Shown here piece after piece: positions 4,961 to 53,848 of a stretch of 64,000 nt of DNA (the stretch's first letter is position 1; each line of letters begins with the position of its first letter). A program made the translations under genes and the position numbers. Location: the NCBI GenBank assembly GCA_046331705.1, contig JAXLQJ010000006.1, forward strand, positions 62,001 through 126,000, read 5' to 3'. This DNA comes from a bacterium. Its GTDB lineage: Bacteria > JADJOY01. The notes beneath the pieces were generated by a model. The model was not told where the DNA came from, made no database searches, and was given only the letters and a program-made list of their open reading frames with translations.

Positions 4961-5512
4961 TCAGGTCTCGGCCGCGCTCGCGCGCCGGGGGCGAGGGCGC
5001 GAACGGCGCGGCCGGGGGTCCTCGAAGAACATCGGCGCCGCTCGCGAGGCGCTCTCCAGGCCGTCCACGAGCCCGGTGAGCAGCCGTGCCAGCGCGGCGC
5101 GGTCGCGCGCCGGCATTCGCGCCAATCCGGCGATGATCCGAGCCTGAGCGATCTCCGGGGCGCGTCGTAGCAGCGCTCGCCCCGCGGGCGTGAGCACGAC
5201 TTCCATTCGGCGCCCGTCCGCGCGCGACCGGTGTCGCTTCACGAGCCCGCGTTCCACCAGTCGCGTCACGACCACCGAGACCGAGCTCTGGTCGGTGAGC
5301 GTGCGCGCCGCCAGCTCGTTGATCGAGAGCCCGGTCGTGGCGCCGACCTCGTGCAGCACGAAGAGCTGCGCGGTGCTGATGCCGAGCCGGTCCTCGGCCG
5401 TGCGCGCCGACTGACGCAGGCTGCGCACGATGCGCCGGAGCGCGTCCATGACGAGCTGGCCCTCGGATCGGGCGTGCGCGCCGTGCGCGGTGGCGTTGGC
5501 TTTCGCGGGCAT
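4961..5512 (-). CDS. MarR family transcriptional regulator
   Basis: GISTAQLFVL..LSINELA..DQSSVS.VV.RLVERGLV.R..DGRR..V.LT..GR winged helix. Confidence 0.9.
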   Translation of the reverse strand: MPAKANATAHGAHARSEGQLVMDALRRIVRSLRQSARTAEDRLGISTAQLFVLHEVGATTGLSINELAARTLTDQSSVSVVVTRLVERGLVKRHRSRADGRRMEVVLTPAGRALLRRAPEIAQARIIAGLARMPARDRAALARLLTGLVDGLESASRAAPMFFEDPRPRRSRPRPRRASAAET

Positions 5513-5652
5513 GGCGATGCCCCGGTATAGGTGCCGCGGAAATCGCCGTCCAGCGGGCGACTGCGGCGAATCGCGTGCCACGCGCGCGGTTGGTGCCGAG
5601 TGGGGCATCGGCCATGTTGCGCGCGCTCACGCTCGCCGCGAAGGGGGATGGC

Positions 5653-7500
5653 ATGCCGATCGCGCTGGATCGCCGCAGTCGTGGTTCCGCTCGCAGGCGC
5701 GTCCCGCTCGCGCCGCTCGTCGTCTGCTGCGTCGTCGCTCTCGATGGATTCGCCACCCGCGCGCTGGCGGAACCCACGTCGGGCGGGGGCTGGGTGGAGC
5801 GGAGCAACGCGAACGCGCAGCAGTTGCTCGCGGTCCAAGCCGCGTTCGACCCCGAGAGCGCGAGCCGCATCGGCGTACCCGGGATCGACGAGCAGGTGAT
5901 CGATCTCGCCGAGCGTTTCGACCTCCGTCACGCCGAGGCGCTCGCGCGCATCGCCGCCGAGCTCGAGCAGCGGCTGCCCACCGAGACCGACGCACGCGTT
6001 CGTCAGGACCTCGAGATCCTGGTGGAAGCGGCGCGTCGCGAGCAGCGGCAGCTCGAGGTGCGTCACCGCATGACGCTTCCTTTCCTATCGCCGAGCGCCC
6101 TCGTGTTCGCCGGCGTGCAGGCGTTGCTCGACGAGCAAACCGCGCCCGCGCGTCGCGCCGCCGCGCACGTTCGGCTGCGCCGCTACGTGGGACTCGAGCC
6201 GGGCTCGACGTCGGTCTTCGAGCTGGCCAAGCAGCGCTTTCGCGAGCGCGCGAACGAGGCCGATCTCCTCGCGCCGACGCGCACGGCGGTGGAGAAGGAG
6301 ATCGCCGATTCGGCGACCTACACCGACGGCGTGCGCCAGCTCTTCCAGCGCTGGAAGCTCGAGGGAGCCGACGCGGCGCTCGCCGCGCTCGCGAGCCAGG
6401 CGAGCGATCACGTGGCATTCATGCGCGACGAGGTGTTGCCGCGGGCGCGCGACGATTTCCGGCTGCCGCCCGAGCTCTACCAGTTGGCGCTCGAAGCGGT
6501 GGGCGTCGACATGCCCGCCGACGAGCTCGAACGCCGGGGGCGCACCGCGTTCGTCGAGATCCAGACCCAGATGCAGTCGCTGGCGCCGCGCGTCGCGCGC
6601 GAGAAGGGGTGGAAGCTCGGCGACTATCGCGACGTGATCCGCGAGCTCAAGAAGCACCAGCTCGGCGACCGCACGATCCTCGCGCACTACCAGAAGCGCG
6701 CCGCGGCGCTCGACGAGATCATCCGGCGCGGGCGCATCGTGACGCTGCCCGAGCGCCCGATGCTGATCGAGCTGGCGAGTGCCGCGGAGAGCGCCGCGAT
6801 TCCCGCGCCCCACGTGCGCACGCCGCGGCTGCTCGGCAACACCGGCGAGCGCGGCGTGTTCGTGTTGCCGCTTCGAATCCGATCGGGAGACGGCGACGCC
6901 TTGTCGTTCGACGATTTCAGCTTCGAGGCGGCCTCGTGGACGCTCACCGCGCACGAGGGCCGGCCCGGCCACGAGCTCCAGTTCGCGCGCACGATCGAGC
7001 AGGGCGTGTCCATCGCGCGCGCCGTGTTCGCCTTCAACAGCGTCAACGTGGAAGGCTGGGCGCTCTACGCCGAAGCCGAGGCGCAGCCCTACGAGCCGCT
7101 CGAGGGCCAGCTCATCGCGCTCCAGCACCGCTTGATGCGGGCCGCGCGCGCCATCCTCGATCCCGCGCTGCAGCGCGGCACGGTGACGAAGGACCAGGCG
7201 CACCGCGTGTTGCGCGAGGACGTGGTGCTCTCGGAGGCGATGACGCGACAGGAGCTCGACCGCTACACGTTCCTGGCGCCGGGTCAGGCCACCTCGTACT
7301 TCGTCGGCTACACGCGCTTGCTCGAGATCCGGGCCGGCGCGCAGCTGGCGCTGGGCGAACGCTTCGACAGGCTCGCGTTCAACGATTTCGTGCTGAGCCG
7401 CGGGCTCGTCCCGCCGCGCTTGCTGAGCAAGGCGGTCGAGGAGGAGTTCGTGCCGGAGCGGCGCGCCGTCAGCGAGAGCCGCGCGGCGGCCGATCCCTGA
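5653..7500 (+). CDS. DUF885 family exported protein (metallopeptidase-like)
   Basis: AHEGRPGHELQ, EGWALYAE and PGQATSY motifs; signal peptide. Start uncertain (5575, 5614 or 5653). Confidence 0.88.
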   Translation: MPIALDRRSRGSARRRVPLAPLVVCCVVALDGFATRALAEPTSGGGWVERSNANAQQLLAVQAAFDPESASRIGVPGIDEQVIDLAERFDLRHAEALARIAAELEQRLPTETDARVRQDLEILVEAARREQRQLEVRHRMTLPFLSPSALVFAGVQALLDEQTAPARRAAAHVRLRRYVGLEPGSTSVFELAKQRFRERANEADLLAPTRTAVEKEIADSATYTDGVRQLFQRWKLEGADAALAALASQASDHVAFMRDEVLPRARDDFRLPPELYQLALEAVGVDMPADELERRGRTAFVEIQTQMQSLAPRVAREKGWKLGDYRDVIRELKKHQLGDRTILAHYQKRAAALDEIIRRGRIVTLPERPMLIELASAAESAAIPAPHVRTPRLLGNTGERGVFVLPLRIRSGDGDALSFDDFSFEAASWTLTAHEGRPGHELQFARTIEQGVSIARAVFAFNSVNVEGWALYAEAEAQPYEPLEGQLIALQHRLMRAARAILDPALQRGTVTKDQAHRVLREDVVLSEAMTRQELDRYTFLAPGQATSYFVGYTRLLEIRAGAQLALGERFDRLAFNDFVLSRGLVPPRLLSKAVEEEFVPERRAVSESRAAADP

Positions 7501-8311
7501 GCTCCGCGGCGGCCGCCGCCGCGACCACCAGTCGCGTCAGACCTGGCGCGAGGCGGCTCAGCGCCGCCGTGAACCGCGCCCGCGCCGGCACGATGATGAG
7601 CGGCAGGTTCCGCTCGACGCCGCGGAGCGCCTCGTCTGCGAGCTTGGTGGGCGGATAGGGTTCGCCGCCGAGCTTCGTCAGGTAGCGGCGCACGTTCGGG
7701 CGCCACGCCACCCGCGGCAGGTCGCTCGGGTTGTCGCAGTCGATGATCGGCGTCTCGGTGGCCGAGGGGCAAAGCGCGCTCACGTGCACGCCGTGAGGTG
7801 CGGCTTCGAGGCGCAGGCTCGTGCTCAGGCCCACCACCGCGTGCTTGGTCATGGCGTACGGCGCGAGCAGCGGCACTGGCACCAGCCCGGCGGCGGATGC
7901 GGTGTTCACGATGTGGCCGCTGCGCTGGGCGACCATGATCGGATACGCGGCGGCGATCCCGTTCACGACGCCGCGGATGTTGATGTCGATGATGCGATCG
8001 TAGTGCTGCACGGCCAGGTCCTCGGCCGCGCCCGCGATGCCGATGCCGGCGTTGTTGAAGAGGTAGTCGATGCGGCCGCGATCGCGGGCGACGCGCTCGA
8101 TCACGGCTCGCACCGCCAGCGCGTCGCGGACGTCGAGCTTCGCCCAGCGGGCCTTGGGGCCGAGCGCCTCGGCGGCTTGCTCGACGCCGGGCGCGTTCAC
8201 GTCGGTGAGCCACACGTCGGCGCCGCGCTTCACCATCGCGATCGAGAGCGCGAGGCCGATGCCCGACGCCGCCCCCGTCACCACCACGTTCGCACCGTTC
8301 CATGCGCTCAT
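7469..8311 (-). CDS. SDR family oxidoreductase
   Basis: TGAASGIG, NNAGI and catalytic YAMTK; GAGGAGG RBS. Confidence 0.93.
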   Translation of the reverse strand: MSAWNGANVVVTGAASGIGLALSIAMVKRGADVWLTDVNAPGVEQAAEALGPKARWAKLDVRDALAVRAVIERVARDRGRIDYLFNNAGIGIAGAAEDLAVQHYDRIIDINIRGVVNGIAAAYPIMVAQRSGHIVNTASAAGLVPVPLLAPYAMTKHAVVGLSTSLRLEAAPHGVHVSALCPSATETPIIDCDNPSDLPRVAWRPNVRRYLTKLGGEPYPPTKLADEALRGVERNLPLIIVPARARFTAALSRLAPGLTRLVVAAAAAAELRDRPPRGSR

Positions 8312-8426
8312 CGTCCCGCCTCCTCGTCGTCGCCGCTGCGCTGAACCTCTACGGTCGCGGCAGGCTAGCGGATGACGGAATCCGCGTGCATGCCTCCGCC
8401 GGGCGTGGCAATCTGTCGCGCCCGCG

Positions 8427-10076
8427 ATGTCGAACGCCACGTCAACCGCCGCCTCGGAGCTCGGCCGCAATCTCGGCGAGCTTCTCGAGCGTCGCGCCGC
8501 CGAGCGCGGCGATGCCACGTTCTTGGTGTGGGACCCCGCGCACGGGCGCGATCCGAGCGCCGTGGGCCGCATCGGCTATCGCGGCCTCGCCGCGAACGTC
8601 GACTGGCTCGCGCGGGCATTCGCGGCGCGCGGCGTCGCGCGAGGCGATCGCGTCTGTGTCCACCTCGACAACCGCCCCGAGTTCCTGATCGCGTGGTGGG
8701 CGCTGGCGCGCCTCGGCGCGGTCTGCGTCTCGACCAACGCGCGCTCCGCCGCGGACGAGCTGCGCTTCTATCTCGAGGATTCGGGCGCCAAGGCGATCGT
8801 GACGTCGGCGGCACGCCGGGACGTCGTCGCGGCGGCGCTGTCGGCGAACGTGGAGCGCGTGGTGCTGGTCGACGACGACGCCGCGGAGATCGTCGGCGAG
8901 GGGTGCGAGACCGAGCGCTGGTCCGCGTTGATGCGCGAGGGCCAAGAATTGCCCGCGCTGGGTGCGTCGCCCGCCCAGCCGCTCGATCCGTGCGCGATTC
9001 TCTACACCTCCGGCACCACCAGCCGCCCCAAGGGAGTGGTGCTGACGCACGCGAACTACCTGTGGGGCGCCGGCCAGATGGCGCAGCACCAGCGGCTCGG
9101 CGCAGACGACGTCTACCTCGTGCAGATGCCGCTCTTCCACGTGAACGCGCAGATCTACTCGGTGCTCGCCTCGTGGGTGGCAGGTGCCACGGTGGTGCTG
9201 GTGCCGACCTTCTCGCGCAGCGGCTTCTGGCGCGCGGCCAGCGAGCACGGCGCCACCGCGAGCTCGATGATCCCGTTCTTCGTGATGGCGCTGTTGCGCA
9301 ACCCGGACGGCTCGCGCGTGCCGCGCGACGCTCTTCCGGAGCATTCGTTTCGGCTGTGGGGCTACGGCATCACCTCGGGCAAGGTCGAGTCGCGCTTTCG
9401 CCTCAAGACGCTCGGCTGGTACGGCATGACCGAGACGGTGTCGGCCGCGGTGATCGGACCCTGGGATGCGCCCGCGCCGGAAGGTGCGATCGGCCGACCG
9501 GCGCACGGTTACCAGGTACGGCTCCTCGACGACGAGGGCATCCCCGTTCCGCCGGGCGTGCCTGGCGCCGTCTTCGTGCGCGGCGAGCGCGGCGTCACGC
9601 TGGCGCTCGAATACCACGATCGGCCGCGCGCCACCGCGGCCGCCTTCGGTCGCGATGGCTGGTTCGCGACCGGCGATCGCATGCGCTACGACGAGGACGG
9701 CTGGCTCTACTTCGTGGATCGCGAGAAGGACATGCTCAAGGTGGGCGGCGAGAACGTCGCCTCCTCCGAGATCGAGCGCGTGCTGCAGGAGGTGCCCGGC
9801 GTCCTCGAGGTGGCCGTGATCGGCCTCGCGGACCCGTTGCTCGGCGAGGTGCCCGCGGCGTGCGTGATCGCGGCTCCCGGGGTCGAGCCCGGCGATCTGC
9901 GCGATCGCTTGCTCGCGCACAGCCGCGCCAAGCTCGCCGACTTCAAGGTTCCACGGCGGATCGAGCTGGTCGACGCGCTGCCCCGCGCCACCCTGGAAAA
10001 GGTGAACAAGGCGGCGCTGCGCGAAGCGCTCGTGCCGCGCGCGGAAGGCCTCGGCGCGGACGCCGCCGCGCGCTGA
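8427..10076 (+). CDS. AMP-binding acyl-CoA ligase (CaiC/crotonobetaine-CoA ligase-like)
   Basis: YTSGTTSRPKG, YGMTE, GWFATGD and DREKDMLKVGGENV motifs. Confidence 0.92.
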   Translation: MSNATSTAASELGRNLGELLERRAAERGDATFLVWDPAHGRDPSAVGRIGYRGLAANVDWLARAFAARGVARGDRVCVHLDNRPEFLIAWWALARLGAVCVSTNARSAADELRFYLEDSGAKAIVTSAARRDVVAAALSANVERVVLVDDDAAEIVGEGCETERWSALMREGQELPALGASPAQPLDPCAILYTSGTTSRPKGVVLTHANYLWGAGQMAQHQRLGADDVYLVQMPLFHVNAQIYSVLASWVAGATVVLVPTFSRSGFWRAASEHGATASSMIPFFVMALLRNPDGSRVPRDALPEHSFRLWGYGITSGKVESRFRLKTLGWYGMTETVSAAVIGPWDAPAPEGAIGRPAHGYQVRLLDDEGIPVPPGVPGAVFVRGERGVTLALEYHDRPRATAAAFGRDGWFATGDRMRYDEDGWLYFVDREKDMLKVGGENVASSEIERVLQEVPGVLEVAVIGLADPLLGEVPAACVIAAPGVEPGDLRDRLLAHSRAKLADFKVPRRIELVDALPRATLEKVNKAALREALVPRAEGLGADAAAR

Positions 10077-42288: not shown

Positions 42289-42619
42289 TCCCTTTCGTCG
42301 CTCGCGAGGGCCGATTCCCTTGGACGCTCTGGAGGTGGGGGGCTATTCGACGAGCCGTGGGGCTTCTGTCGGTTTCGGCGTCGTGTGGCGCGCGTGGTGG
42401 AGGCATTGCTGGTTTCCGGTCGTGCCGGTGCGTGCTTCGCGCTGGCCGCAAGGTGCGTGGGACGTGCGATGACCGTGTTCGCGCTCGCCCGTGCGCCCCT
42501 CGGGAGCAGCTTCCCGCTCCGCGTCACGTCACGGCTGATCGCAGGCGGGGGGCTTTCTGGTGGCGGGGTACGATTTTCGGCCGGTCACGGTCGCGCCTGC
42601 GCTACAGGACCCGCCGGCT

Positions 42620-42955
42620 TGGCGCAGGTCGGCGCGCTCGTGCGTCTCGATGCCACCGGCAACGTGCTCGGATATCGCGACGACCCTAGGCGATCTCGCG
42701 CGCTGGGGCACCCTGGCGAGTGATGGCGGTGCGATTCTCACGGGTCGCACCGCGTACGGCGAGGTGACGCCCACCTCGGACGTGTTCTTGATGAAGACCG
42801 ACGTCGGCGGTGTGCCCGAGTGGACCCGCGTCTCCATTACTCTCAGCGAGGACGAAGGCCAGGACGTCCGCACCATGCCGGATGGCGGCTAGGCCCTCTC
42901 GGGTGACTACGCCGGCCACGCGTACCTCGCGAAGACCGACTCGACGGGTGACGCC
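42620..42955 (+). pseudogene. Decayed fragment of a DGG..G/KTD..G beta-propeller repeat protein
   Basis: VRLDATGNV; SDGGAILTG..DVFLMKTDVGGVPEW..PDGG*ALSG..AYLAKTDSTG with an in-frame TAG at 42890-42892 and frame changes. Confidence 0.6.
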
Positions 42956-42960
42956 GGCCC

Positions 42961-42983
42961 ACCACCTCCCTGAGGGTGGTGGT
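42961..42983 (-). terminator. Possible hairpin downstream of the nos operon
   Basis: ACCACC-T-CCC-tga-GGG-T-GGTGGT imperfect stem about 65 nt past the fasciclin stop. Confidence 0.3.
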
Positions 42984-43048
42984 GGAAGGGCGAATCTGGC
43001 GTGCCCGTGCGTGTGCGCGAGCGCTGCGCCGGCCGTGTGGCCAAGCGC

Positions 43049-43540
43049 CTATTTCGCTGGCGGCAGCAACACCTTGTCGATGACGTGGACGATGCCGTTC
43101 CCGGCTCGCGCCGAGCCGAGGATGGTCGCGTCGTTGATCATCGTCTTGCCGTCCTTGACGTGGAACGTGACCTTGGCACCGTTCGCCATCCCCAGGGTCT
43201 GACCGTCCTTCAACCAGCCCTTCTCGTAGGTCGAGACGGTGACGTGGTACTTGAGGACGTTTTGCAGGTCTCCCTTCTTCTCGGGCTTCAAGAGCTCGTC
43301 GAGCGTTCCCGGCGGCAGCGCGGCGAAGGCGGCGTTGGTGGGCGCGAACACGGTGAACGGCCCTGGATTCTGGAGCGACACCACGTAGTCCGCGGCCTTG
43401 AGCGCGGCCACCAACGTCGAGTGGTCCGCCGACGCGACGGCGATGTCCACCACCGTCTTCGGCGTGTCCTGCGCGCGCGCCGGCGCGCATCCGAGCCATG
43501 CGGTGAGCCCCACGACCGCCATCCAAACGATGCGCTTCAT
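43049..43540 (-). CDS. Fasciclin (FAS1) domain exported protein
   Basis: STLVAALKAA, GPFTVFAPTNAAF, LKYHV, NGIVHVIDKVLLP. Confidence 0.93.
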   Translation of the reverse strand: MKRIVWMAVVGLTAWLGCAPARAQDTPKTVVDIAVASADHSTLVAALKAADYVVSLQNPGPFTVFAPTNAAFAALPPGTLDELLKPEKKGDLQNVLKYHVTVSTYEKGWLKDGQTLGMANGAKVTFHVKDGKTMINDATILGSARAGNGIVHVIDKVLLPPAK

Positions 43541-43616
43541 GCACCCCGCCTCTGGGCTGGGCTCACGCCCCGCCGTTTCCTGGTTGCGTGATCGAGTGGC
43601 CCGCGCACGGCGCGGT

Positions 43617-44270
43617 TCAGCTCGCGGCGCTGATTCCTCGGATGGCGCGGCGGCGACCGTCCCACAGGTACCAGACCGTCAGCAGCGTGATCCCCGCCGC
43701 GTAGGCGAGGATCAGGAAGCCGCCGACACCGGGGTAGCTGTGCGTGGTGAAGTTCGCGATCTGCTTGGTGCCGAAGATCGCGGGCGTGAACGGTTGCACC
43801 TTGACCGGCGCGGTCGGGTCCAGGTCGTGGCCGTAGATGTAGAGCTTGTAGACGAAGCGCGCGAACGCGAACGTGCAGACGTAGAGGTTGAAGACGGTGA
43901 GGTCGATCAGCGATCGCACCGTGCCGATTGCCGCCACGCGCAGCGCCATCAACGCCAGCACGCCGAAGCCGAACGGCAGCCAATCCAGATCGGAGAGCTG
44001 CGCCCGATCCAGGTGCTTCATGCCGATGTAATGGTTGAGGGTGTTGATCTCCTGGAGGTGCTGGCCCTCGTTCCCGGCGGCGAGCTTGTAGGAGAAGATG
44101 TCGAGGACGAGCCCCTTCGGGTATTGGGGCGCGTACATCGAGATCCTCCACATCGGCGTCACGTAGCTGAGCGCCAGCGGGATGATCAGCGCGGCGAGCA
44201 CGAACCGCACCGGGATGCGCAGCGGCCGGTCGAGGTAGGCGTAGAACTTGTCGAGCATCAACGGGGCCAT
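43617..44270 (-). CDS. nosB: Clade II nos-cluster membrane protein (NosB-like)
   Basis: PMWRISMYAPQYPKGL..INTLNHYIGMK, YGHDLDP.AP, ~4 TMs; AAGGAG RBS; nos context. Confidence 0.72.
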   Translation of the reverse strand: MAPLMLDKFYAYLDRPLRIPVRFVLAALIIPLALSYVTPMWRISMYAPQYPKGLVLDIFSYKLAAGNEGQHLQEINTLNHYIGMKHLDRAQLSDLDWLPFGFGVLALMALRVAAIGTVRSLIDLTVFNLYVCTFAFARFVYKLYIYGHDLDPTAPVKVQPFTPAIFGTKQIANFTTHSYPGVGGFLILAYAAGITLLTVWYLWDGRRRAIRGISAAS

Positions 44271-44311
44271 GGCGAGGGTCTCCTTCCGGGATCGAGGCTC
44301 CGCGGCGGGAA

Positions 44312-45154
44312 TCAGACGACGTCGCCGCGGGTGAATCGGACGTAGGCGAGAAGCCACGACGCGAAGCCGGTGACGAGCGGCCACGCCACGCCCAGCGCGA
44401 GCAGCACGCCCGCGCCCACCCGCGTCGCCACGAAGAAGCCGACGGGACCGAGCGCGGAGAGATCGGGGTCCCCCGCGGACAAGAGCGCCATGCGCGCCGC
44501 TTGCACCGGGTTGAGCAACGCCAGCGCGAAGACACCCTGCGGCTGGAGCCGCCATTCGAGCATCACGCCGATCAGCGCGAAGTCGAGGAGCGCAACCGAC
44601 AGGATCCACACCAGGAGCGCGATCGTGGCGGAGCGCGCCTGGCTGGTGACGAAGGTCGAGATGAAGAGCCCCACGCCGAGGAAGCTCGCGAGCAGCGCCG
44701 CGCTCACCGCCACCGACTCGAGCAGGATGTTCCACGCGATCGTGCCGCCGAGGACCGTTCGACCGAGCACCGCCAGCGCCACGAAGAGCAGCGCCAACGG
44801 AACCGCCAGCACGACGTAGCGAGACGCGGTGACGCCGAGGAAGTAAGCGCCGCGGCGCACCGGGTGGCTGAAGAGCAGCTCGAGGGCGCCCTCGTCGCGA
44901 GCGCGGTTGATCACCTGCGACGACGCCGTGAGCGCGAGCAACGGCAGCACCAGCAGCAGCGCGTGGGTGAGGCCGACCAGCACCCGACCCATGCCGGTGA
45001 AGCCGAGCAGCGTCGACTCCCGGAGCCCGACGAACACGAACACCACCGCGAGCGCGGCGTAGAGCGAGACGCAGAAGAGCGCCCAGCGCGAGCGCACGGT
45101 CTCCGCGAGGTCGAGCCGGAAGATCGCGCTCCAGTCCCGGTTGCCGTGACCCAT
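44312..45154 (-). CDS. nosY: ABC transporter permease NosY
   Basis: Six TMs, EGALELLFSHPV, LLNPVQAAR; nos context. Confidence 0.88.
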   Translation of the reverse strand: MGHGNRDWSAIFRLDLAETVRSRWALFCVSLYAALAVVFVFVGLRESTLLGFTGMGRVLVGLTHALLLVLPLLALTASSQVINRARDEGALELLFSHPVRRGAYFLGVTASRYVVLAVPLALLFVALAVLGRTVLGGTIAWNILLESVAVSAALLASFLGVGLFISTFVTSQARSATIALLVWILSVALLDFALIGVMLEWRLQPQGVFALALLNPVQAARMALLSAGDPDLSALGPVGFFVATRVGAGVLLALGVAWPLVTGFASWLLAYVRFTRGDVV

Positions 45155-45172
45155 GTCCGCCTCCGTCGTGCC

Positions 45173-45634
45173 TCAGCGCGACGCGTGTTCCTTGGCCAGC
45201 GCGCGTTCGCGTGCTTGCTCGTAGCCGAGGCTCGCCGCTTCGCTCGCGTCGACGGCGGCGAGCCCGAAGTCCATCGGCGTCGCCGCGACCGTCACGAACG
45301 CCACGTCCGTGAGGCGCAGCCAGCGCTCCTCGCGCGCGTGGTGGAACCAGACTTCGTGGATCTCGGGCCGCTGCTGCTCCACGTACGCGAAGAAGCAGCC
45401 CGGGTCGTCGAAGTCGAGGACCTCGCCACCGGTGGTCTGAAGCTGCACGGCGAAGCGCGCTTCGCTCAGGTGCATGTGGCAATGGGCGCAGGCTTCCTTG
45501 CCCCAGGCGATCGGCACGGGGCCGTCGGCCAGCTGTTGCCCCAGTCGCACCTGCCAACCCACGATGCCCACGCCGACGGCGAGCACCGCGAGCACCAGCG
45601 GCAGCACGATGCGCGTGACGGCACGGTCGCTCAT
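45173..45634 (-). CDS. nosL: Copper chaperone NosL-like
   Basis: CAHCHM, FDDPGC, TPMDFG; N-terminal TM anchor; ATGA overlap with nosF. Confidence 0.85.
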   Translation of the reverse strand: MSDRAVTRIVLPLVLAVLAVGVGIVGWQVRLGQQLADGPVPIAWGKEACAHCHMHLSEARFAVQLQTTGGEVLDFDDPGCFFAYVEQQRPEIHEVWFHHAREERWLRLTDVAFVTVAATPMDFGLAAVDASEAASLGYEQARERALAKEHASR

Positions 45635-46533
45635 GGCGCGAGGCCTCCGTCGTCGTCCGCGCCAGCGCGGGTCGGCGAGAGCGTCTCCACATCGCGCACG
45701 AGCACGTTCTGCACCGAACCGTTCATCCGCGAGGTGAGCTCGCGGACCACGGCGAGCTTCTCGGCCTGCGGCAGCACGCGCCGCCACCAGCCGTTCACGC
45801 CCGCCTCGAAGCCGTGGGCGGTGAGATCGAGGTGAGTGGCCTCGGCGGCGACGCGGACGTCGACCACCGCCATCGCGGAGGCCCGCAGGTACTCCTCGGT
45901 CGGGCCGGAGAACTCGAGGATGCCGTCCCGCAGCGCCAGCACGTGGGTCGTGAGCTGGCGCAGCTCGTCGAGGCGGTGCGAGCACAGCACCACGGTCGCG
46001 CTCGTGGGGATGCGCGCGATCAGCCGGAAGAAATCCTGGCGCGCCTCGGCGTCGAGGCTCGCGGTGGGCTCGTCGAGGATGTAGAGCGAGGCGTCGACCG
46101 AGAGCGCGAGCGCGATCAAGAGCTTCTGGCGCATGCCGCCGGAGAGGTCGCGCAAGAGGCGCGGCGCGATCTCGGCCAGATCGAGATCCATGGCCCGCGC
46201 CGCCGCCGCGATCCGCTCCGCGTCGAGGCCGCGCACGTGGGCGGTGGCGCGCACCAGATCGCGCACCGGAACCGCGAGGCGCGGTGCCACCTGCGGAACG
46301 TACGCCAATCGGTCCGCGAGCCGCGTGCGGTCGCGAAACGGCGAGAGCCCGTCGATGCGCACCTCGCCCGAGCTCTTGAGCATCCCGAGCAGGATGCGGA
46401 GCAGCGTCGACTTGCCCGAGCCGTTGTGGCCGATCAGCGCCACACGCGCGCCCGCGGGAACCGAAGCGGTGATGCCCTTGAGTGCCGTGACGCGCCCGAA
46501 GGAGCGCCGCACGTCCACGAGGTCAATCTTCAT
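45631..46533 (-). CDS. nosF: ABC transporter ATPase NosF
   Basis: GHNGSGKS, LSGGMRQK, ILDEPT, SH. Confidence 0.9.
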   Translation of the reverse strand: MKIDLVDVRRSFGRVTALKGITASVPAGARVALIGHNGSGKSTLLRILLGMLKSSGEVRIDGLSPFRDRTRLADRLAYVPQVAPRLAVPVRDLVRATAHVRGLDAERIAAAARAMDLDLAEIAPRLLRDLSGGMRQKLLIALALSVDASLYILDEPTASLDAEARQDFFRLIARIPTSATVVLCSHRLDELRQLTTHVLALRDGILEFSGPTEEYLRASAMAVVDVRVAAEATHLDLTAHGFEAGVNGWWRRVLPQAEKLAVVRELTSRMNGSVQNVLVRDVETLSPTRAGADDDGGLAP

Positions 46534-47933
46534 CGAAGTTGCCTGCGAGCGCCGCGTCCGAGGCCTCCGGGCGCATGCGCGGCCGGGGGTCGACGAGCAG
46601 CGTGGTGGGCTGGAAGAGCGGCAGGACGTGGTTGACGGTGTCGACGGCGAAGAGCGCGAGCCCGCCGCGGAAGTACGCGAGGCCGGGATGATGGCCGATC
46701 AAGCTGGCGGTCATGCTGCGCAGCTCGTAGGGGACGTCGCCGTAGCCGTCGCCGTCGAAGTCGTAGCCGGCGTAGTCGTCGAAGTCGTTGCCGAGCCACT
46801 CGGCGTCGCGGGCGTTGGTGCCGCCACGGCACTCCACCTGGACGAGGTTGTCGCGGAAGCTGTTGGCGACGAAGTGGTTGCGGCTGGCGCGGCCGTGGAA
46901 GACCACGGCGGAGCCGCCCAGGCGGACGACGTTGTGCTCGAAGTGGTTCTGGTCCGAGTCGTTGAGCGGCGAGGTGTCGATGTAGACCCCCACCGTGTCG
47001 CGCAGCAGCGCGTTGCCGACGACGCGGATGTTGCCGGACTCTTGAGGCCGATGCCCATGCCCGCGGCGCCACCGCTGCCCGCGAGGACGTTGCCGTCCAG
47101 CGTCACGCCGCGGCTGTACATGATGAAGATGCCGACGACGTCGTCGACGTACCGGTTGCGCACCACGAGGTTGTCGTGGCTGTACATGAAGTGCGTGCCG
47201 TAACGCCCGCGCACCACGAGGTTGTGCTCGATCTCGTTGCCGCGCGAGTACCACACGACCATGTCGCGGGAATCCGTCAGCCGGTTGTGCTCGACCACCG
47301 AGTCGTAGGTTTCCCAGAGCCGGATGCCGTCGCCGCGCAGCCCGAACGCGAGCTTCGGATCGCCGACCACGTCGTTGCCGCGCACCACGATCCGGTGGGA
47401 TCTCTCGACGAGGATGCCGAACGTGGCGTGGCGGACGACGAGCCCCTCGATCGTCACGTCGTCGCCGGCCACGCGCACCGCCGCATCGACGGTGTCGAAG
47501 CGGCCTCCGCTGCCGTCGATGGTGAAGCCCAGCAGCCGCACGCCGACGCCCGCGACGCGGATCGTCGAGCCGACCTTGGTGGAGACGATCACGGACTCGG
47601 GCGTCCCCCAGATCGTGAGGCCGCGGCTCACGTTCAGATCACCGGGATAGTTTCCCGCTGGCAGACAGAGCGCGGCACCGTCGGGAAGCGCGTCGAGGAC
47701 GGGCTGCAGGGCGCTACCGGGGTGGCCTCGGCGCAGCTCGCGGGACGGGCCGGCTCCGCGCGCCGCCAACGGGTGGCCGACGCGTTCGGGCTCGCGCCGC
47801 GGTGCACGGGCTCGTAGACGACGTCGTGGGGGTCGGCGGCCAGCGCGGCGGTGAGCGCGACGAGCGAGCAGCACGCGCCCATCCACGCTGCTCGCGTCCA
47901 GCGCGGCATCCCCTTCGATTCGGTGGCTCTCAT
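46523..47933 (-). CDS. nosD: Nitrous oxide reductase maturation protein NosD (two apparent single-base deletions)
   Basis: GDGIRLW, RYGTHFMYS, GNDFDDYAGYDFDGDGYGDVPY, VDPRPRM spread over three frames. Restoring one C at ~47720 and one G at ~47041 gives one continuous frame. Confidence 0.88.
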
Positions 47934-47994
47934 CGGCGTGACCGCTGCGCGAGGAAGTCGGTGCGAGTCAGGAGCGTCCGGTGGGCGGGGAGGT

Positions 47995-48023
47995 GGCGGG
48001 TGCGAGCAGCGCTCGCACCCGCC
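47995..48023 (-). other. Intra-operon RNA stem-loop between nosZ and nosD
   Basis: GGCGGGTGCGAGC-agc-GCTCGCACCCGCC, 13-bp perfect stem, no U tract. Confidence 0.65.
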
Positions 48024-48054
48024 GGAGCAAGAGGAGGAAGAGAGGGCTCTCGGC

Positions 48055-50088
48055 TCAGCCGCCGGCGCGCTTCGCCGGTTTTGCCGGCGCGGGCTTCGTC
48101 TCGGCGACCTTCGGCTCGACCAGGAAGTAGCCCGCCATCTCGAGGTGCAGCGCCGAGCAGAACTCGGTGCAGTACATCGGGAAGACGCCGGGCTTGTCGG
48201 CGACGAAGTCCACGTTCGCGTGCTCGCCGGGCTCCAGGCTGAGCTGGATGTTGTGCGAGTCGAGGGCGAAGCCGTGGGTGGCGTCCTGGGCCTGCTCGAG
48301 ATTGGTGATGTGCAGGTGGACCTGGTCGCCCTCCTTCACGTGAACGATGTCGGGCGTGAAGTGGCTGCGGATCGCCGTCATGTAGATGTGCACGCCGTCC
48401 GGCTTGCGCTCCACGCGTTCCTTGCCGCCTTCCACCGCGAACGGATCCTTCTGATCCGTGAGCGGGTTGGTGCCCGCCGGCTTGTAGATCTCCTCGGCGT
48501 GGATCTTGTCGGCCTTGATCATCTGGGCGTAGTGCGGCTCACCCAGGGGCAAGGGCATGTCGTAGAGCAGTTGCAGCTTGTCCTGCGACAGATCGACGAG
48601 CTGGAAGTTCTGGGGAAGCAGCGGACCCACCGGCGCGAAGCGGTCGATCGCCCACTTGTCCATCATCACCAGGAACCGGCCGTCGGGGCTGACGGTGTCG
48701 CCCTCGGCGGCCGCCAGGTGCCCGATGTTGTAGTGAGCGGGCAGCTTCTCGATGAGCTTCAGGTCCTTCAGGTTCCACTTCGCCACCACGGACTCGATGA
48801 ACACCGAGGTGTAGGCGTTGCCCTGATCGTCGAACTGGGTGTGCAGCGGGCCGAGACCGATCTCCACCTGACCGCGAATGGATTCCTGGAAGGAGAGGAT
48901 CGGCACGCCGTACGGGTCCTTGCCTTCGTATTTCTTGTCGGCGATCAGCTTCTTGATCTTCTCGATCGAGTAGACGGTGGCGTGGGTGTCGAGCTTGCCG
49001 CCGACCACGATGTCCTTGCCGTCCGGGCTCACGTCCACGCCGTGCGGGCTCTTGGGCTCGGGAATGAAGTGCAGGATGTCGTTCTCGATCGCGGTCGCGA
49101 GGCGGATGACCCGGAAGCCCTTGATGGTCTCGGTCTTGCCCGCCTTGGCGAGCTGCTCGGCTTTTCGCCAGTCGACGACGTGGAGGTAGTCCATGTCGTT
49201 CTGCGAATAGCTCGACTCCATCGGCGGACGGCCTTCCATGTCGCCGCCGTAGGCGCGCTCGGTGTTGATCGAGTTGCAGAACGCGAAGCCGTCGCTCACC
49301 AGCTTGCCGGCGTCGGCGAGGTCTTGCGTGTACGGCGGCAGCTCGACGGCGAACGACTCGGCCGGGACGATGCGCCCCTTCTCCCGGTCGAACTTCCAGA
49401 AGATCATCGCGCCACGGTAGGCCTCGTCGAATTTGTCGAGCGGCACGTACTCGCCGCCGAACGGCGACGGATACTGCGACGTCTCGATGACGTAGTCGGT
49501 GTTGGGCGTGACGAACGTCCCGCCGTGGTCCGACTCGATGAGGTTGGATTCGACGATCTGCTTGGTGACGAAATCCTTCAGGTCGACGACCGCCACGCGC
49601 GCGTTGGCCTTGTCGCCGATGAAGAGATAACGCCCGTCGTAATCGCCCTTGGTCTCGCTCAATGCCGGGTGATGGGTGTCGGCCCAGCTCAGCGTGTGTC
49701 CGTGGCGGTTGCCGGACGCGAGGATGTCGTCGCTCTGGTCGCCGTAGCCGTAGCCCTGCCAGGGCTCGGGTGTGAACACGGCGACGTATTTGAGGATGCG
49801 CATGCTCGGCACACCGATGACGATGACGTTCCCGCCGTGCCCGCCCGACGCGAAGAGGTAGTACTCGTCGTGGCGTCCGGTGGGCGTGTACGTCTTGAGC
49901 GCCGCCGTGACGTCCGCCTCGCTCAGGTTGCGGTCCTTCATGAGCTTCTGAAGCCCAGGACCGCCCGCGTCCGCCGCCCGCGCCACTCCTGCCGAGCCCA
50001 GATCGCAACCGCCCTGGGAAAGCACCGTCGTCGTCAGCGCGAGCGCTGCCACGACCATCCGTGCCGCGTGTGATCTCCTCCGATCCAT
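48055..50088 (-). CDS. nosZ: Nitrous oxide reductase, clade II (Sec-type, possibly lipoprotein)
   Basis: SGGHGG, DTHHP, SDHGG, PKSPHG, GPLHT, HYNIGH, GEPHY CuZ histidines; CuA CTEFCSALHLEM; no Tat FLK motif; leader ends QGGC. Confidence 0.97.
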   Translation of the reverse strand: MDRRRSHAARMVVAALALTTTVLSQGGCDLGSAGVARAADAGGPGLQKLMKDRNLSEADVTAALKTYTPTGRHDEYYLFASGGHGGNVIVIGVPSMRILKYVAVFTPEPWQGYGYGDQSDDILASGNRHGHTLSWADTHHPALSETKGDYDGRYLFIGDKANARVAVVDLKDFVTKQIVESNLIESDHGGTFVTPNTDYVIETSQYPSPFGGEYVPLDKFDEAYRGAMIFWKFDREKGRIVPAESFAVELPPYTQDLADAGKLVSDGFAFCNSINTERAYGGDMEGRPPMESSYSQNDMDYLHVVDWRKAEQLAKAGKTETIKGFRVIRLATAIENDILHFIPEPKSPHGVDVSPDGKDIVVGGKLDTHATVYSIEKIKKLIADKKYEGKDPYGVPILSFQESIRGQVEIGLGPLHTQFDDQGNAYTSVFIESVVAKWNLKDLKLIEKLPAHYNIGHLAAAEGDTVSPDGRFLVMMDKWAIDRFAPVGPLLPQNFQLVDLSQDKLQLLYDMPLPLGEPHYAQMIKADKIHAEEIYKPAGTNPLTDQKDPFAVEGGKERVERKPDGVHIYMTAIRSHFTPDIVHVKEGDQVHLHITNLEQAQDATHGFALDSHNIQLSLEPGEHANVDFVADKPGVFPMYCTEFCSALHLEMAGYFLVEPKVAETKPAPAKPAKRAGG

Positions 50089-50161
50089 GCTCACTCCCTC
50101 CTCGGTGCTCCGGGTGTTGCGGGGATGGTGCGGACGCTCGTTCCGCCACCCGCGCGTTCGC

Positions 50162-50539
50162 TCACTTCTTGAAACCGCGAATGATCTGGCGCAGCGCGGA
50201 GACCACGTCCGGCTTGGCCATCAGGTCTGGGTTCGAAGGCATCGCGGGGCTCTTGCCGACGGCGGCCCCGCCGAACTTGATGATCGTCTCGATGTGGTTG
50301 TCGTTCACCGACTTCTGCCACTCGGCGTCGGTGAAGTTGCGTGGCTTGGGCGTGAGGCCCGCGGACCCGGGACCGTCGCCGGCACCCTTCGGTCCGTGGC
50401 AGGGAGTGCAGCGCAGCTCGAAGATGCTCTGCGCTTCCTGCTTGGCCGCGTCCGCGTCCGCCCGGCTCGCGGTGGGGGAGACGAGCGCGAGCGCGGCCGC
50501 CGCGGCGGAAGCCAGCACCATCCTTTCCATTCGATTCAT
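50162..50539 (-). CDS. Monoheme c-type cytochrome
   Basis: Signal peptide, CTPCHG..GAGDGP, PKPRNF, distal Met in SPAMP; AAGGAA RBS. Confidence 0.92.
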   Translation of the reverse strand: MNRMERMVLASAAAAALALVSPTASRADADAAKQEAQSIFELRCTPCHGPKGAGDGPGSAGLTPKPRNFTDAEWQKSVNDNHIETIIKFGGAAVGKSPAMPSNPDLMAKPDVVSALRQIIRGFKK

Positions 50540-50601
50540 GACCGTTTCCTTTCGCTTCGCGTGCTGCGAGGGCTCGCGTGAGCCCGGGTATGAGTCGTGG
50601 C

Positions 50602-51051
50602 TCAGCTCTCGCCGCGCAACGCGCGCGGGAAGAGGACTTCGTTCTCGAGTTGCATGTGCTCGCGGACGTGGGTGTCGAGACGGCCGAGCCCCGTTGCGAC
50701 CTCCGCCACCAGCCCGCTCGGCTCGCGACTCGCGTCGAGGGCCTCGGTGAGGGTCCGCACGCGATTCAGGAGCTCGAGCGTCTCGCGGTGCTCCATCACC
50801 ATCACCTGGATCGGCGCGTGCGCGAGGTCGCCGCGCCCCGAGCGAATCCACGGGAAGAGCACGGTCTCTTCCTTCTCCATGTGCGCTTCCAGCTCGTCCT
50901 TGAGGTGGGTGAACGCGGCGCCGACGGCGGCGAGCCGCGGAGCGAGCCGCGGTGGCGTCCGGCGCAGCAGGTCGTCGAGGCGTTGCATCTCGTGGTGCTC
51001 GATTCGGTGGAAGCGCGATTGGATGTGGTCCACCAGCTCGGCGACCGTCAT
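50602..51051 (-). CDS. Hemerythrin-domain di-iron protein (Ric/YtfE/NorA C-terminal-like, no ScdA_N domain)
   Basis: HIQSRFH, HMEKEETVLFP, PIQVMVMEH, HMQLENEVLFP. ATG 51051 chosen because it lies downstream of the sigma54 promoter. Confidence 0.88.
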   Translation of the reverse strand: MTVAELVDHIQSRFHRIEHHEMQRLDDLLRRTPPRLAPRLAAVGAAFTHLKDELEAHMEKEETVLFPWIRSGRGDLAHAPIQVMVMEHRETLELLNRVRTLTEALDASREPSGLVAEVATGLGRLDTHVREHMQLENEVLFPRALRGES

Positions 51052-51099
51052 TTCCTCGGCGGGAGCCGTCGCGTCGCTTGCAGGCACGTGCGCCAGCAA

Positions 51100-51116
51100 A
51101 GCAAGGTCCGCACCAG
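51100..51116 (-). promoter_or_regulatory. Sigma54 (-24/-12) promoter facing the hemerythrin-cyt c-nos operon
   Basis: Minus strand CTGGTGCGGACCTTGCT vs consensus YTGGCACGNNNNTTGCW: exact GG-N10-GC spacing, two mismatches. Confidence 0.8.
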
Positions 51117-51158
51117 GGTGCGACATTCCGTCGCACTTGAGTTTTTTGGCCTTACGTA

Positions 51159-51215
51159 GTCAAATCGACTCCAGTCGACGGGAGTCGTAATGACCTCTGG
51201 TGGAGTCCAAAACAC
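51159..51215. promoter_or_regulatory. Three NorR enhancer sites (GT-N7-AC)
   Basis: GTCAAATCGAC 51159-69, GTCGTAATGAC 51184-94, GTCCAAAACAC 51205-15; each preceded by A and starting GTC. Confidence 0.82.
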
Positions 51216-51225
51216 TCGCCGCCAC

Positions 51226-52776
51226 GTGGAGGCGGTGGCCCCGTTCCTGGCCGCCGTCACGGCGCTGGTCGGCGATCTCGACGAGACCGAGCGGTATCGC
51301 CGACTGCTGCTCCACATCCACGACGTGGTGCCCTACGACGCCGCGGCCTTCCTGCGGCTCGGTCCCGATGGCTGGCTGGTGCCCGTCGCTGTCGTGGGCT
51401 TGGTGCCCGACACGCTGGGGCGTCGCTTCCGCGCGGACGATCACCCGCGCTTGCACCAGATCCTGAGCTCGCCGACGCCGGTGAAGTTTCCGCAGGCCTC
51501 GGAGCTGCCCGACCCCTTCGACGGCTTGATGCTCGCGGACCACTCGGGCGCCGCCCGCGTCCACGCGTGCATGGGCTGCGCGCTACGCGTGCAGGGCGAG
51601 ACGCTGGGGCTGCTCGCCGCCGACGCGCTCGATCCGCGCGCCTTCGATGGCATCGACGCCGGCGCGCTCGAGAGCTTCGCCGCGGTGCTGTCGCTCGCGT
51701 TTCGCGCGGCGAGCCTGCTTGCGGCCGTGGAGGCGAGCGCCAGCCGCGAGCGCAGCGTCTCGCGTCAGCTCACCTCCGAGGCCCACGAGCGGGTGGGCTC
51801 GGAGTTCCTCGGCGCCAGCACCGCCGCCGAGCAGGTGCGCGCGGACATCGCGCTGCTGGCGCGCTCCGACCTGCCGGTGCTCATCAGCGGCGAGACGGGT
51901 GTGGGGAAGGAGGTGGCGGCGCGGGCCCTCCATCGTCAGTCGGCGCGGCGCGACCAGCCGCTCATCTACCTCAACTGCGCGGCGCTGCCGGAATCGATCG
52001 CGGAGAGCGAGCTCTTCGGTCACACCCGCGGCGCCTTCACCGGTGCCACCGACGCACGTCCCGGCAAGTTCGAGGTCGCCAATCGCGGCACGCTCTTTCT
52101 CGACGAGATCGGCGAGATGCCGCTCTCGCTGCAGCCCAAGCTCTTGCGCGTGCTGCAAACCGGCGAGATCCAGCGGGTGGGCTCGGACGCGGCGCTCTTC
52201 GTGGACGTGCGGGTGATCGCCGCGACCAACCGCAACCTGCCAGCGGAGGTGGACGCGGGGCGTTTCCGAGCCGATCTCTTTCACCGTCTCAACGTCTACC
52301 CGATCGCCATCCCACCGCTGCGCGAGCGTCCCGCCGACATCGGGCTGCTCAGCGGTTACTTCCTCGACCACGTGCGCATCCGTCTGGGCTTGGGCCCGCT
52401 GCGCGTCACGGCCCAAGCGCGCGATGCGCTGCGGGCCTACGACTGGCCGGGCAACGTCCGCGAGCTCGAGCACGTCTTGCTGCGCGCGGCGTTGCGCGCC
52501 GCCGCCGGCAAGCGCGGCGGCAGCGTGGCGATCGGGATCGAGCATCTGGCGCTCGATGCGTCCCAGACACCGGCGGGGCCGAGCGTCGAGAAGGCCGTGC
52601 CCGCCATCGGAGGCGGCACCAGCCTGCGCGCCGCCACCGACGACTACCAGCGCGCGCTGATCCGCCAGGCGCTCGCGGCGAACGGTGCCAGTTGGGCCGC
52701 GGCGGCACGCGCCCTCGGCCTCGACCGCGGCAACCTGAGGCGACTCGCCGGGCGGCTCGGCCTGCGCGAGTCGTGA
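51226..52776 (+). CDS. norR: NO-responsive sigma54 activator NorR (GAF-AAA+-HTH)
   Basis: GAF motifs [68 protein letters not shown]. Start GTG 51226 or ATG 51190. Confidence 0.92.
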
Positions 52777-52813
52777 GCGCTGCGCGCGTCCCGCGGCGCG
52801 AGTCGCGCGTCGA

Positions 52814-53848
52814 TCAGCGCGGGACGGTCGTCGCGTCGAGCGCCCGCAGGCCTTCGGCGATGGCGCGGATCGCGTCGAGGTGCACGGGAAACGGCGAGGC
52901 GATCGAGACCCGCGCGGCGATGGACCCGTAGCGCTCGACGAGCAAGCGCGGGATCTCCTCCGGCGCACCCCGAATGGCGACCGCATCGAGCAGCGCGTCG
53001 TCGATGCGCTCGCCCAGCTCGCCCCATCGTCCCTCGCGTGTGAGCGCTTGCAGCTCGGCTTGCAGCGCGCCCGCGCCCTCCGCCTCCAGCACCGAGCGAT
53101 ACGCCGGAGTGGACGCGTAGAAGCCGATTTGCTGGCGGGTCAGCTCGCGCGCCTGGGCGAGGTCTTCTTCGGTGCGGCCCGTGACGATCAGCGCCTGCAC
53201 GTCGATCTCGAGCTCGTCCTGCGTGCGGCCCGCGGCGGCGAGGCCGCGAGCGATCGCCGGCAGCGTCACGCTCTCGAGCGAGCGACGGGTGTGGAATGGG
53301 TGCACGAGCATCCCGTCGCCGAGCTCCGCGGCGACCTCGGTCATGCGCGGGCCCACGCCGGCGATCAACACTTTGGGGAGGCCGAACTCGCTCGCCCCGG
53401 GATTGAAGAGCGGCGGCAGGAGTGTGTGGGTGTAGAACTCGCCCTGGAACGCGAGGCGAGTCCCGTCCTGCCAGCTTCGCCAGATGGCACGCAGCGCCCG
53501 CACGAACTCGTGCATTCGCTCCGTGGGACGCGACCACGCCGCTCCGAAGCGCCGCTCGATGTGCGCTTTCACCTGCGAGCCGAGCCCGAGAACGAAACGG
53601 CCCTTCGAGAAGGCGTGGAGGTCGTAGGCGAGCTGCGCCACGATCATCGGATTACGCGCCAGCGCGATCGCCACCTGCGTGGAGAGCGTCGCGCGGCGGG
53701 TGTGCTCGGCGGCGAGCGCCAAGCGCAGGAAGGGCTCGCGCGGCCCCTCGAAGACGAAGAGCCCGTCGACGCCGGTGTCCTCCACGGCGCGCGCGACCTC
53801 CGCCACGTCGCCCAGCTCGAGCGCGAGAATCGGCGCGTCCAGCTTCAT
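52814..53848 (-). CDS. LLM-class putative F420-dependent oxidoreductase (TIGR03617-like)
   Basis: EGPREPFL, IALARNPM, GRFVLGLGSQVKAHIERRF, FYASTPAY. Confidence 0.88.
   Translation of the reverse strand: MKLDAPILALELGDVAEVARAVEDTGVDGLFVFEGPREPFLRLALAAEHTRRATLSTQVAIALARNPMIVAQLAYDLHAFSKGRFVLGLGSQVKAHIERRFGAAWSRPTERMHEFVRALRAIWRSWQDGTRLAFQGEFYTHTLLPPLFNPGASEFGLPKVLIAGVGPRMTEVAAELGDGMLVHPFHTRRSLESVTLPAIARGLAAAGRTQDELEIDVQALIVTGRTEEDLAQARELTRQQIGFYASTPAYRSVLEAEGAGALQAELQALTREGRWGELGERIDDALLDAVAIRGAPEEIPRLLVERYGSIAARVSIASPFPVHLDAIRAIAEGLRALDATTVPR

Follow-up and report, generated by a model that had tools for sequence, protein, structure and literature searches.

A NorR-type activator and a sigma-54 promoter predicted to control a clade II nitrous-oxide reductase operon

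The window analysed here is a 64,000-nt stretch of DNA (70% G+C) of an uncultured wastewater bacterium, from contig C6 of a genome of 8,174,981 bases (G000; 118 contigs, 95.7% complete). In it, a gene for a regulator of the NorR type stands back to back with a gene cluster around nosZ, which encodes nitrous-oxide (N2O) reductase. The cluster lies on the minus strand in the order hemerythrin, cytochrome c, nosZ, nosD, nosF, a nosL-like gene, nosY, a membrane protein gene and a fasciclin gene, with norR divergent on the plus strand (Table 1). Profile matches confirm this order, which an earlier note on the same DNA had proposed, whereas its labels hold only in part: 'nosB' is not confirmed, and nosL rests mainly on its position. 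From the features described below we propose, with moderate confidence, that the regulator (NorR1) senses nitric oxide (NO) and drives the hemerythrin–cytochrome c–nosZ operon through a sigma-54 promoter.

NorR1 scores 658.2 bits against the NorR equivalog model NF003451 (cut-off 476), and the next-best family, NifA, reaches 327.6 bits, which is under NifA's own cut-off. Its AAA+ domain (PF00158, 3.3e-67) contains the GAFTGA motif, and the HTH_8 domain, at 21 bits against a cut-off of 22, aligns with Escherichia coli NorR to its end. The two proteins share 48% identity. The iron-ligand motifs of the GAF domain had been described as intact, and NorR1 is indeed identical to the E. coli protein at R75, D96, D99, H111, C113 and D131, with phenylalanine in place of Y98; D96 and D131 are residues that we take to be iron-centre positions. 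All 18 of the NorR-family rows that we aligned keep this pattern, while the NorR iron-centre residues are missing from two further GAF activators of this genome. In the accessible text of PMC2941729, substitutions at R75, Y98, D99, H111 and C113 of E. coli NorR disrupt the iron centre. By profile score and residue pattern, the regulator is thus a NorR equivalog for which NO sensing is predicted.

Read toward nosZ, the DNA between the two divergent genes presents three putative NorR boxes, C (GTGTTTTGGAC), B (GTCATTACGAC) and A (GTCGATTTGAC), followed by an A6 tract, a palindrome, the element TGGTGC-GGACC-TTGCT, about 48 nt, and GAGGAA directly before the hemerythrin ATG at 51051. We assign the hemerythrin start to this ATG because the alignment to YtfE begins at its methionine, the ATG is kept in three species, and the preceding stretch is poorly conserved; the longest open reading frame (ATG 51126) would include the promoter. 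The A6/T6 tract may be an intrinsic DNA bend, with a putative role in bending the DNA between boxes and promoter. Read on the plus strand, the palindrome and the T6 run (51116-51147) resemble an intrinsic-terminator hairpin just upstream of norR.

The earlier claim of a GG-N10-GC sigma-54 promoter pointing at the nos genes is borne out by a predicted site at 51115-51100 on the minus strand. Its core and flanks score 9/11, a level (at least 9) that occurs once per 11.6 kb of strand in this genome; rpoN is encoded (453 bits, cut-off 277); and the activator boxes lie 62-108 nt upstream, with their centres 62, 87 and 108 nt from the -12 G. Use of the site is predicted. The three GT-N7-AC boxes are likewise where they had been reported, but the longest norR frame, which begins at ATG 51190, overlaps boxes B and C, and only a norR start at GTG 51226 would make these two intergenic.

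The genome collection that we searched holds only six species genomes of this phylum, to which the in-lineage survey was limited. Two sister species (G002 and G003) were compared with the window in a three-species DNA alignment of about 80% identity overall. Across the three species, 17 of 18 box-core positions are invariant, as are all five positions of the promoter's TTGCT and both of its GG, compared with only 38 of the 108 other columns of 51052-51225.

A single GT-N7-AC box is low in information, and 18,341 such words occur in the genome. This raises the possibility that the motifs are chance matches and that the adjacency of norR and nos has no regulatory meaning. The cluster, however, is unique: a rule that demands three GT-N7-AC boxes at intervals of 18-27 nt, of which two or more must be GTC-N5-GAC, matches the genome once, at the window site, and a loose version matches 13 times. 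The rule recovers the E. coli norV enhancer, two Pseudomonas loci, Paludibacterium and the orthologous sites in G002 and G003, as well as six of nine nos-linked norR loci from metagenomes. It matches none of 76 non-NorR activator loci (0.99 Mb), which came from a genome-collection scan with NorR1 that returned mostly unrelated sigma-54 activators; nos or hemerythrin genes were found at E <= 1e-8 in none of the 80 loci from that scan. Because the cluster occurs once in its genome and stands out as conserved among diverged sequence, because the rule was validated on NorR loci already known, and because the linkage recurs in independent loci, we regard chance as a very improbable explanation.

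The arrangement resembles that of norR-norVW in E. coli, whose NorR has three enhancer sites according to the accessible text of PMC2941729. The E. coli K-12 norR-norV spacer contains GTCAATTTGAC, GTCATATCGAC and GTCATTTTGAC, spaced 21 and 24 nt, and then TGGCAC-N5-CTGCA. Both loci share the divergent layout, three sites of GTC-N5-GAC form at 21-25 nt spacing, an A/T-rich stretch and a GG-N10-GC element, and NorR1 keeps the GAF iron-centre residues and GAFTGA. The window boxes, spaced 25 and 21 nt, differ from the E. coli sites at 1, 2 and 3 of 11 positions; the reverse complement of box A differs from GTCAATTTGAC at one base in 11. The distances from the -12 G to the box centres are 74, 98 and 119 nt at norV, which places the window boxes about 11 bp, or one helical turn, nearer to the promoter. 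The two systems differ in their targets, flavorubredoxin in E. coli and an operon of a RIC-type hemerythrin, cytochrome c and nosZ here; in the window, moreover, the boxes overlap the norR start and an extra palindrome abuts the -24 element.

These last features bear on a second explanation, in which another activator, acting for example at the TGCGAC-N5-GTCGCA palindrome or at a distant site, fires the promoter while the NorR boxes serve norR autoregulation alone. Matches to the activator model number 48 in this genome, and the boxes overlap the norR start here, in metagenomic loci and in Pseudomonas, where a box likewise lies over the norR ATG. The conserved palindrome has further occurrences on this contig, ahead of a histidine kinase gene and of an NtrC-type regulator gene, and NorR boxes are missing from nos-proximal sigma-54 sites elsewhere. 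On the other hand, the palindrome ends 3 nt from the TGG of the -24 element, which would be too near for a looping enhancer, and the geometry of boxes and promoter is that of E. coli norV with an offset of one helical turn. In E. coli as well as Pseudomonas, boxes that overlap norR also activate its divergent target. We therefore consider it improbable that NorR1 is confined to its own gene, and retain NorR1 as the likelier activator of the promoter.

Look-alikes of the palindrome occur at four intergenic spots of contig C6 outside the window (10082, 13119, 28894 and 31023): before a histidine kinase gene, before an NtrC-type response regulator gene, beside an MbnP-like gene, and between a divergent heme-copper oxidase gene and a YtkA-like gene. 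The oxidase subunit I (C6:29463-30995; 5464-6951 of locus L016) matches solved oxidases at about 75 bits and PF00115 at 152 bits, and its gene adjoins the MbnP-like and YtkA-like genes. A shared regulator of the TGCGAC-N5-GTCGCA sites, perhaps copper-related, is possible.

We then asked whether a transcript from this promoter reaches nosZ across the gaps of 63 nt (hemerythrin to cytochrome c) and 73 nt (cytochrome c to nosZ). Near-identical DNA was found in public runs of 13 studies, labelled mostly as activated sludge, sludge or wastewater, and four of these runs, two of DNA (X1, X5) and two of RNA (X16, X17), were compared with the window, all as contigs. A 161-nt RNA contig of X17 (record 24; 50480-50640) spans the hemerythrin stop, the gap and the cytochrome c start with 0 differences. 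A 232-nt contig of X16 (record 15; 49996-50227) runs from cytochrome c into nosZ, also with 0 differences, and a 204-nt contig of X17 (record 22) covers the same gap; X16 has an additional contig over 50830-51046. The norR bins at 51112-51599 have a depth of 0 in both RNA runs, which makes DNA carry-over a less likely source of these contigs, and stretches that have no RNA contigs (norR and most of nosDFLY) are not evidence of silence.

The same region must be weighed against a third explanation, in which the hemerythrin gene is the main target of NorR1 and the sigma-54 promoter, nosZ is transcribed mostly from a so far unrecognised promoter within or after hemerythrin or cytochrome c, and the RNA across the junction is minor read-through. 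NorR-controlled RIC, DnrN or NorA is a known pattern (accessible text of PMC1274295), and nosZ or cytochrome c has a sigma-54 site of its own in other loci. RNA depth over nosZ far exceeds the depth over hemerythrin and cytochrome c; these depths sum other organisms and cannot rank genes. A hairpin after the hemerythrin stop is conserved in position, with its stem changed in G003; yet it folds no better than shuffled sequences (z = -0.2, -0.1 and -1.1), has no U-run, and is crossed by the perfectly matching X17 contig. Nor do the gaps offer an obvious alternative start. A scan of 42500-53200 found no sigma-70-like promoter anywhere and no T-run terminator in either gap, neither gap contains a further sigma-54 site scoring at least 9, and 50001-51260 contains no FNR/DNR-type box with two or fewer mismatches. 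We regard this third explanation as unlikely, although it is the strongest competitor to NorR1 control of the whole hemerythrin–cytochrome c–nosZ unit.

Scanning metagenomes with a NosZ alignment yielded 80 loci, including one that is identical to the window. Upstream sequence exceeds 2 kb in 46 of the loci, and nine of these have a co-directional norR directly before cytochrome c and nosZ, so that linkage of norR to nosZ recurs in metagenomes. All nine of these upstream activators are full-length, pass the NorR cut-off (513-688 bits) and have the iron-centre residues. Five of the nine loci show a RIC-type gene divergent from norR, and the three-box cluster lies over the norR start in the six mentioned above; a (T/C/G)GGCA(C/T)-N5-xTGCT site is located between norR and cytochrome c in eight. 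RIC-type genes are near nosZ in 10 of the 80 loci, cytochrome c homologues precede nosZ in most related loci, and fasciclin homologues stand beside many of them. The NorR-RIC module and the nos cluster are therefore found together in more than one arrangement, which speaks for a functional tie between them.

Sigma-54-like sites scoring at least 9/11 on the nosZ strand are present in 35 of 75 scanned loci, where about 6.1 would be expected from the loci's own density; 17 lie before cytochrome c and 18 directly before nosZ. At a score of at least 10/11, the count is 13 loci against 0.9 expected. These numbers hint that clade II nosZ is commonly under sigma-54 control.

Two recurrent elements were seen in these loci. 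A sigma-54-like TGGC-N8-GTGCT element on the plus strand, 18-25 nt upstream of the three boxes and directed toward norR, is found in L138, L142, L144, L150, L171, L179 and L159; an enhancer formed by the boxes would sit downstream of that promoter. In a second metagenomic group (L115, L116, L125, L127, L128, L133, L134, L140, L145, L146, L148 and L161), a nearly fixed TGGC(T/G/C)T-N5-ATTGCA lies directly before nosZ, in the spacer behind cytochrome c, and a fasciclin gene is divergent. A 57-aa upstream fragment in L119 was rejected as a NorR N terminus (BLASTP E = 0.24) and left out of the counts. The nearest outside nosZ (G040, 58% identity) has no NorR nearby; its cluster consists of mfd followed by nosZ, two cytochrome c genes, a membrane protein gene, nosD and a ferredoxin gene.

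Several observations weigh against NorR1 control of nosZ. In the norR–cytochrome c–nosZ loci, the sigma-54 site before cytochrome c has no GT-N7-AC box nearby, and a palindrome, GCGCA-N5-TGCGC, precedes the nos-proximal sigma-54 sites of L138, L142, L171, L179 and L150 by about 70-85 nt. A different activator could serve the nos promoters of these loci, with GCGCA-N5-TGCGC as its candidate enhancer; the same palindrome is also present between divergent sigma-54 sites in L129 and, in a looser form, in L118. At the window itself, the position of the boxes over norR's own start makes autoregulation a likely part of their role, and the conserved palindrome abutting the -24 element points to a possible second input. 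The orthologous promoter of G002 scores only 7/11 on the same scale. The equivalent of E. coli R81 is serine in NorR1; we do not take R81 as defining for NorR, because Pseudomonas NorRs also have serine or alanine there. The NorR tree is a basal polytomy in which the nos-linked clade is not separated and the number of recruitments is not readable. Finally, the bridge from hemerythrin to cytochrome c is one RNA contig from one study, and contigs cannot show transcription starts, strands or single transcripts.

To place the regulator in the NO metabolism of the cell, we searched the rest of the genome. A second NorR locus (C22:51351-56065; 5351-10065 of locus L015) has norR2 divergent from a full-length ytfE and qNOR. 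NorR2 scores 658 bits on the NorR model and is 53% identical to NorR1, and the qNOR matches solved qNOR chains at 947 bits. The absence of an NO reductase stated in the earlier note is therefore correct for the operon and incorrect for the genome. The norR2 spacer contains one GT-N7-AC word only, together with repeats of the GTTAT-N7-ATAAC type and the site CGGCAT-N5-CTGCG, a pattern suggesting that NorR2 differs from NorR1 in site specificity.

The genome search for nirS, nirK, norB and hcp that had been recommended also turned up a NirK-like protein of 593 aa (C12:107810-109591; 592-2373 of locus L191). It falls below the TIGR02376 cut-off; among solved structures, 4KNS, a copper nitrite reductase of two domains, is its best match (340 bits, to the C-terminal 290 aa), with about 300 extra aa in front, and a second partial cupredoxin match was noted just upstream of the gene. 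With the models used, hcp and napA were not found in the 95.7%-complete genome, and nirS and narG gave partial matches only (28 and 100 bits, respectively). From this gene content, the cell can probably make NO from nitrite and reduce it, so an external NO source, including the neighbouring cells invoked previously, is not required.

Sequence comparison leads us to the following model. NorR1 would bind the three GTC-N5-GAC-type sites straddling its own start codon, and NO at the GAF-domain iron would let it activate sigma-54 RNA polymerase at the predicted promoter. The transcript would start near 51089 and pass through the RIC-type hemerythrin, cytochrome c and nosZ, with some read-through past the hairpin behind nosZ into nosDFLY. 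Cytoplasmic NO, probably from the cell's own NirK-like enzyme or from outside, would thereby be the 'on' signal for N2O respiration. NorA has an NO-buffering role; the hemerythrin here may buffer NO and feed back on NorR. In evolutionary terms, an ordinary divergent NorR-RIC pair would have become fused to cytochrome c and nosZ. This is a better description than the 'rewired' NO sensor proposed before, as NorR control of RIC is already known.

Other NorR systems place the model in context. In the accessible text of PMC1274295, the NorR regulon comprises norVW, norAB/norB, hmp, hcp, dnrN and nnrS, and DNR boxes are upstream of nosZ. At Ralstonia eutropha norR-norAB and Pseudomonas stutzeri dnrN, NorR and sigma-54 drive a target operon whose first gene is of the di-iron hemerythrin type (NorA/DnrN/YtfE family; accessible text of PMC1274295), as we propose here. 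The norR2-ytfE-qNOR locus has the same gene order as those loci, whereas in the window cytochrome c and nosZ, not norB, stand behind the hemerythrin, which lacks the YtfE N-terminal domain. In classical denitrifiers, DNR and NnrR/NNR of the Crp/FNR family act at nosZ, and there NO, the upstream intermediate, switches on N2O reductase, as it would in our model. Those systems pair a Crp/FNR protein with sigma-70 and clade I nosZ; the window pairs a non-haem-iron GAF activator with sigma-54 and clade II nosZ.

A full-text literature search, in which supplementary tables were not covered, found no description of NorR or sigma-54 control of nosZ, in agreement with the earlier note, which knew of no characterised NorR-nos regulon; the accessible parts of PMC6446978, PMC8979117 and PMC11526790 contain nothing relevant to NorR-nosZ control. 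The wiring is, judged from the DNA, a regulatory variant of the known NorR type that is probably real and new.

A broader picture can be offered only tentatively, and we hold it with more doubt than confidence. Sigma-54 and NorR may have come to govern nosZ throughout an environmental branch of the clade II N2O reducers that is common in activated sludge, with NO, not oxygen or N2O, as the master switch. A copper-linked second input might possibly act through the promoter palindrome, and the NorR-RIC module may have been attached in at least two ways, with nos behind norR or behind hemerythrin. N2O reductase is, to our knowledge, the only biological sink of N2O. Wastewater systems face N2O emissions as a practical problem, and transients of NO are frequent in them. 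Should nosZ be under NorR here, a pulse of NO ought to induce it, which would give a simple, testable handle on N2O consumption. The NorR regulon would then widen from detoxification to respiration, and sigma-54 would be linked to the last step of denitrification.

Table 1 Features of the norR–nos locus in window coordinates
Feature	Position	Strand	Details
norR (paralog 1)	51190..52776	+	528 aa; GAF, Sigma54_activat, HTH_8 (Pfam); alternative in-frame start GTG 51226
Putative NorR box C, GTCCAAAACAC	51205..51215		GT-N7-AC; inside longest norR reading frame; 8/11 columns invariant in three species
Putative NorR box B, GTCGTAATGAC	51184..51194		GTC-N5-GAC; contains norR ATG; 8/11 columns invariant in three species
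Putative NorR box A, GTCAAATCGAC	51159..51169		GTC-N5-GAC; 10/11 columns invariant in three species
A6/T6 tract	51142..51147		Between boxes and promoter; conserved in three species
Palindrome TGCGAC-N5-GTCGCA	51119..51135		Directly upstream of -24 element; arms invariant, loop variable in three species
Predicted sigma-54 type promoter, TGGTGCGGACCTTGCT	51115-51100	-	TGGTGC-N5-TTGCT (GG-N10-GC); points at hemerythrin, cytochrome c, nosZ
Hemerythrin-only RIC/DnrN-like di-iron protein	50602..51051	-	149 aa; PF01814 at 8.6e-19
Small periplasmic cytochrome c	50162..50539	-	125 aa; signal peptide; CxxCH; PF00034
nosZ, Sec-type (clade II) nitrous-oxide reductase	48055..50088	-	TIGR04246, 852.1 bits (cut-off 625)
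G+C-rich hairpin after nosZ stop	47995..48023	-	13 bp; no U-run; z = -3.1 (window), -3.9 (G002)
nosD	46523..47933	-	Frame-broken at about 47721 and 47040; TIGR04247 positions 1-227 and 218-377 in two frames
nosF, ABC ATPase	45631..46533	-	PF00005 and cluster position
nosL-like	45173..45634	-	Weak match: PF05573 E = 0.074, 13.8 bits (cut-off 24); position kept in related loci
nosY, ABC-2 permease	44312..45154	-	PF12679 at 9.9e-17
nos-associated membrane protein	43617..44270	-	217 aa; no Pfam family; Atlas structural neighbours include NosL and NosD fusions
Fasciclin-domain protein	43049..43540	-	Signal peptide; PF02469 at 4.5e-33

The hemerythrin falls below the cut-offs of the RIC families (95.2 versus 204.7 for TIGR03652, 90.2 versus 254 for YtfE and 75.2 versus 300 for DnrN). 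It aligns only to positions 58-216 of the RIC/YtfE profile, the C-terminal two thirds, the N-terminal domain (ScdA_N) being absent, and shares 37% identity with residues 73-218 of the YtfE encoded in the same genome. The reductase scores 401 against the TAT-type model TIGR04244, below its cut-off of 625, and its N terminus reads MDRRRSHAARMVVAALALTT. The hairpin behind nosZ shows a compensatory change in G002 and was not found in the folded G003 stretch; it may separate nosZ from the accessory genes, and it may attenuate or stabilise the transcript between nosZ and nosD.

The two frame breaks in nosD are probably assembly indels or minor variants, not marks of a dead gene, because other assemblies read through and the sister genomes are broken in different genes. 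Relative to the window, short-read DNA contigs of X1 and X5, runs of two other studies, contain one more base behind 47040, and those of X5 also one more behind 47721; metagenome contig L110, identical to the window, differs at about 47721. In G003, nosZ and nosY carry the breaks and nosD is one frame, while nosD of G002 is broken at another point. Farther along the cluster, the open reading frame 43537-44535 was rejected as 'nosB': it is an arginine-rich wrong frame, and the actual gene there is that of the nos-associated membrane protein.

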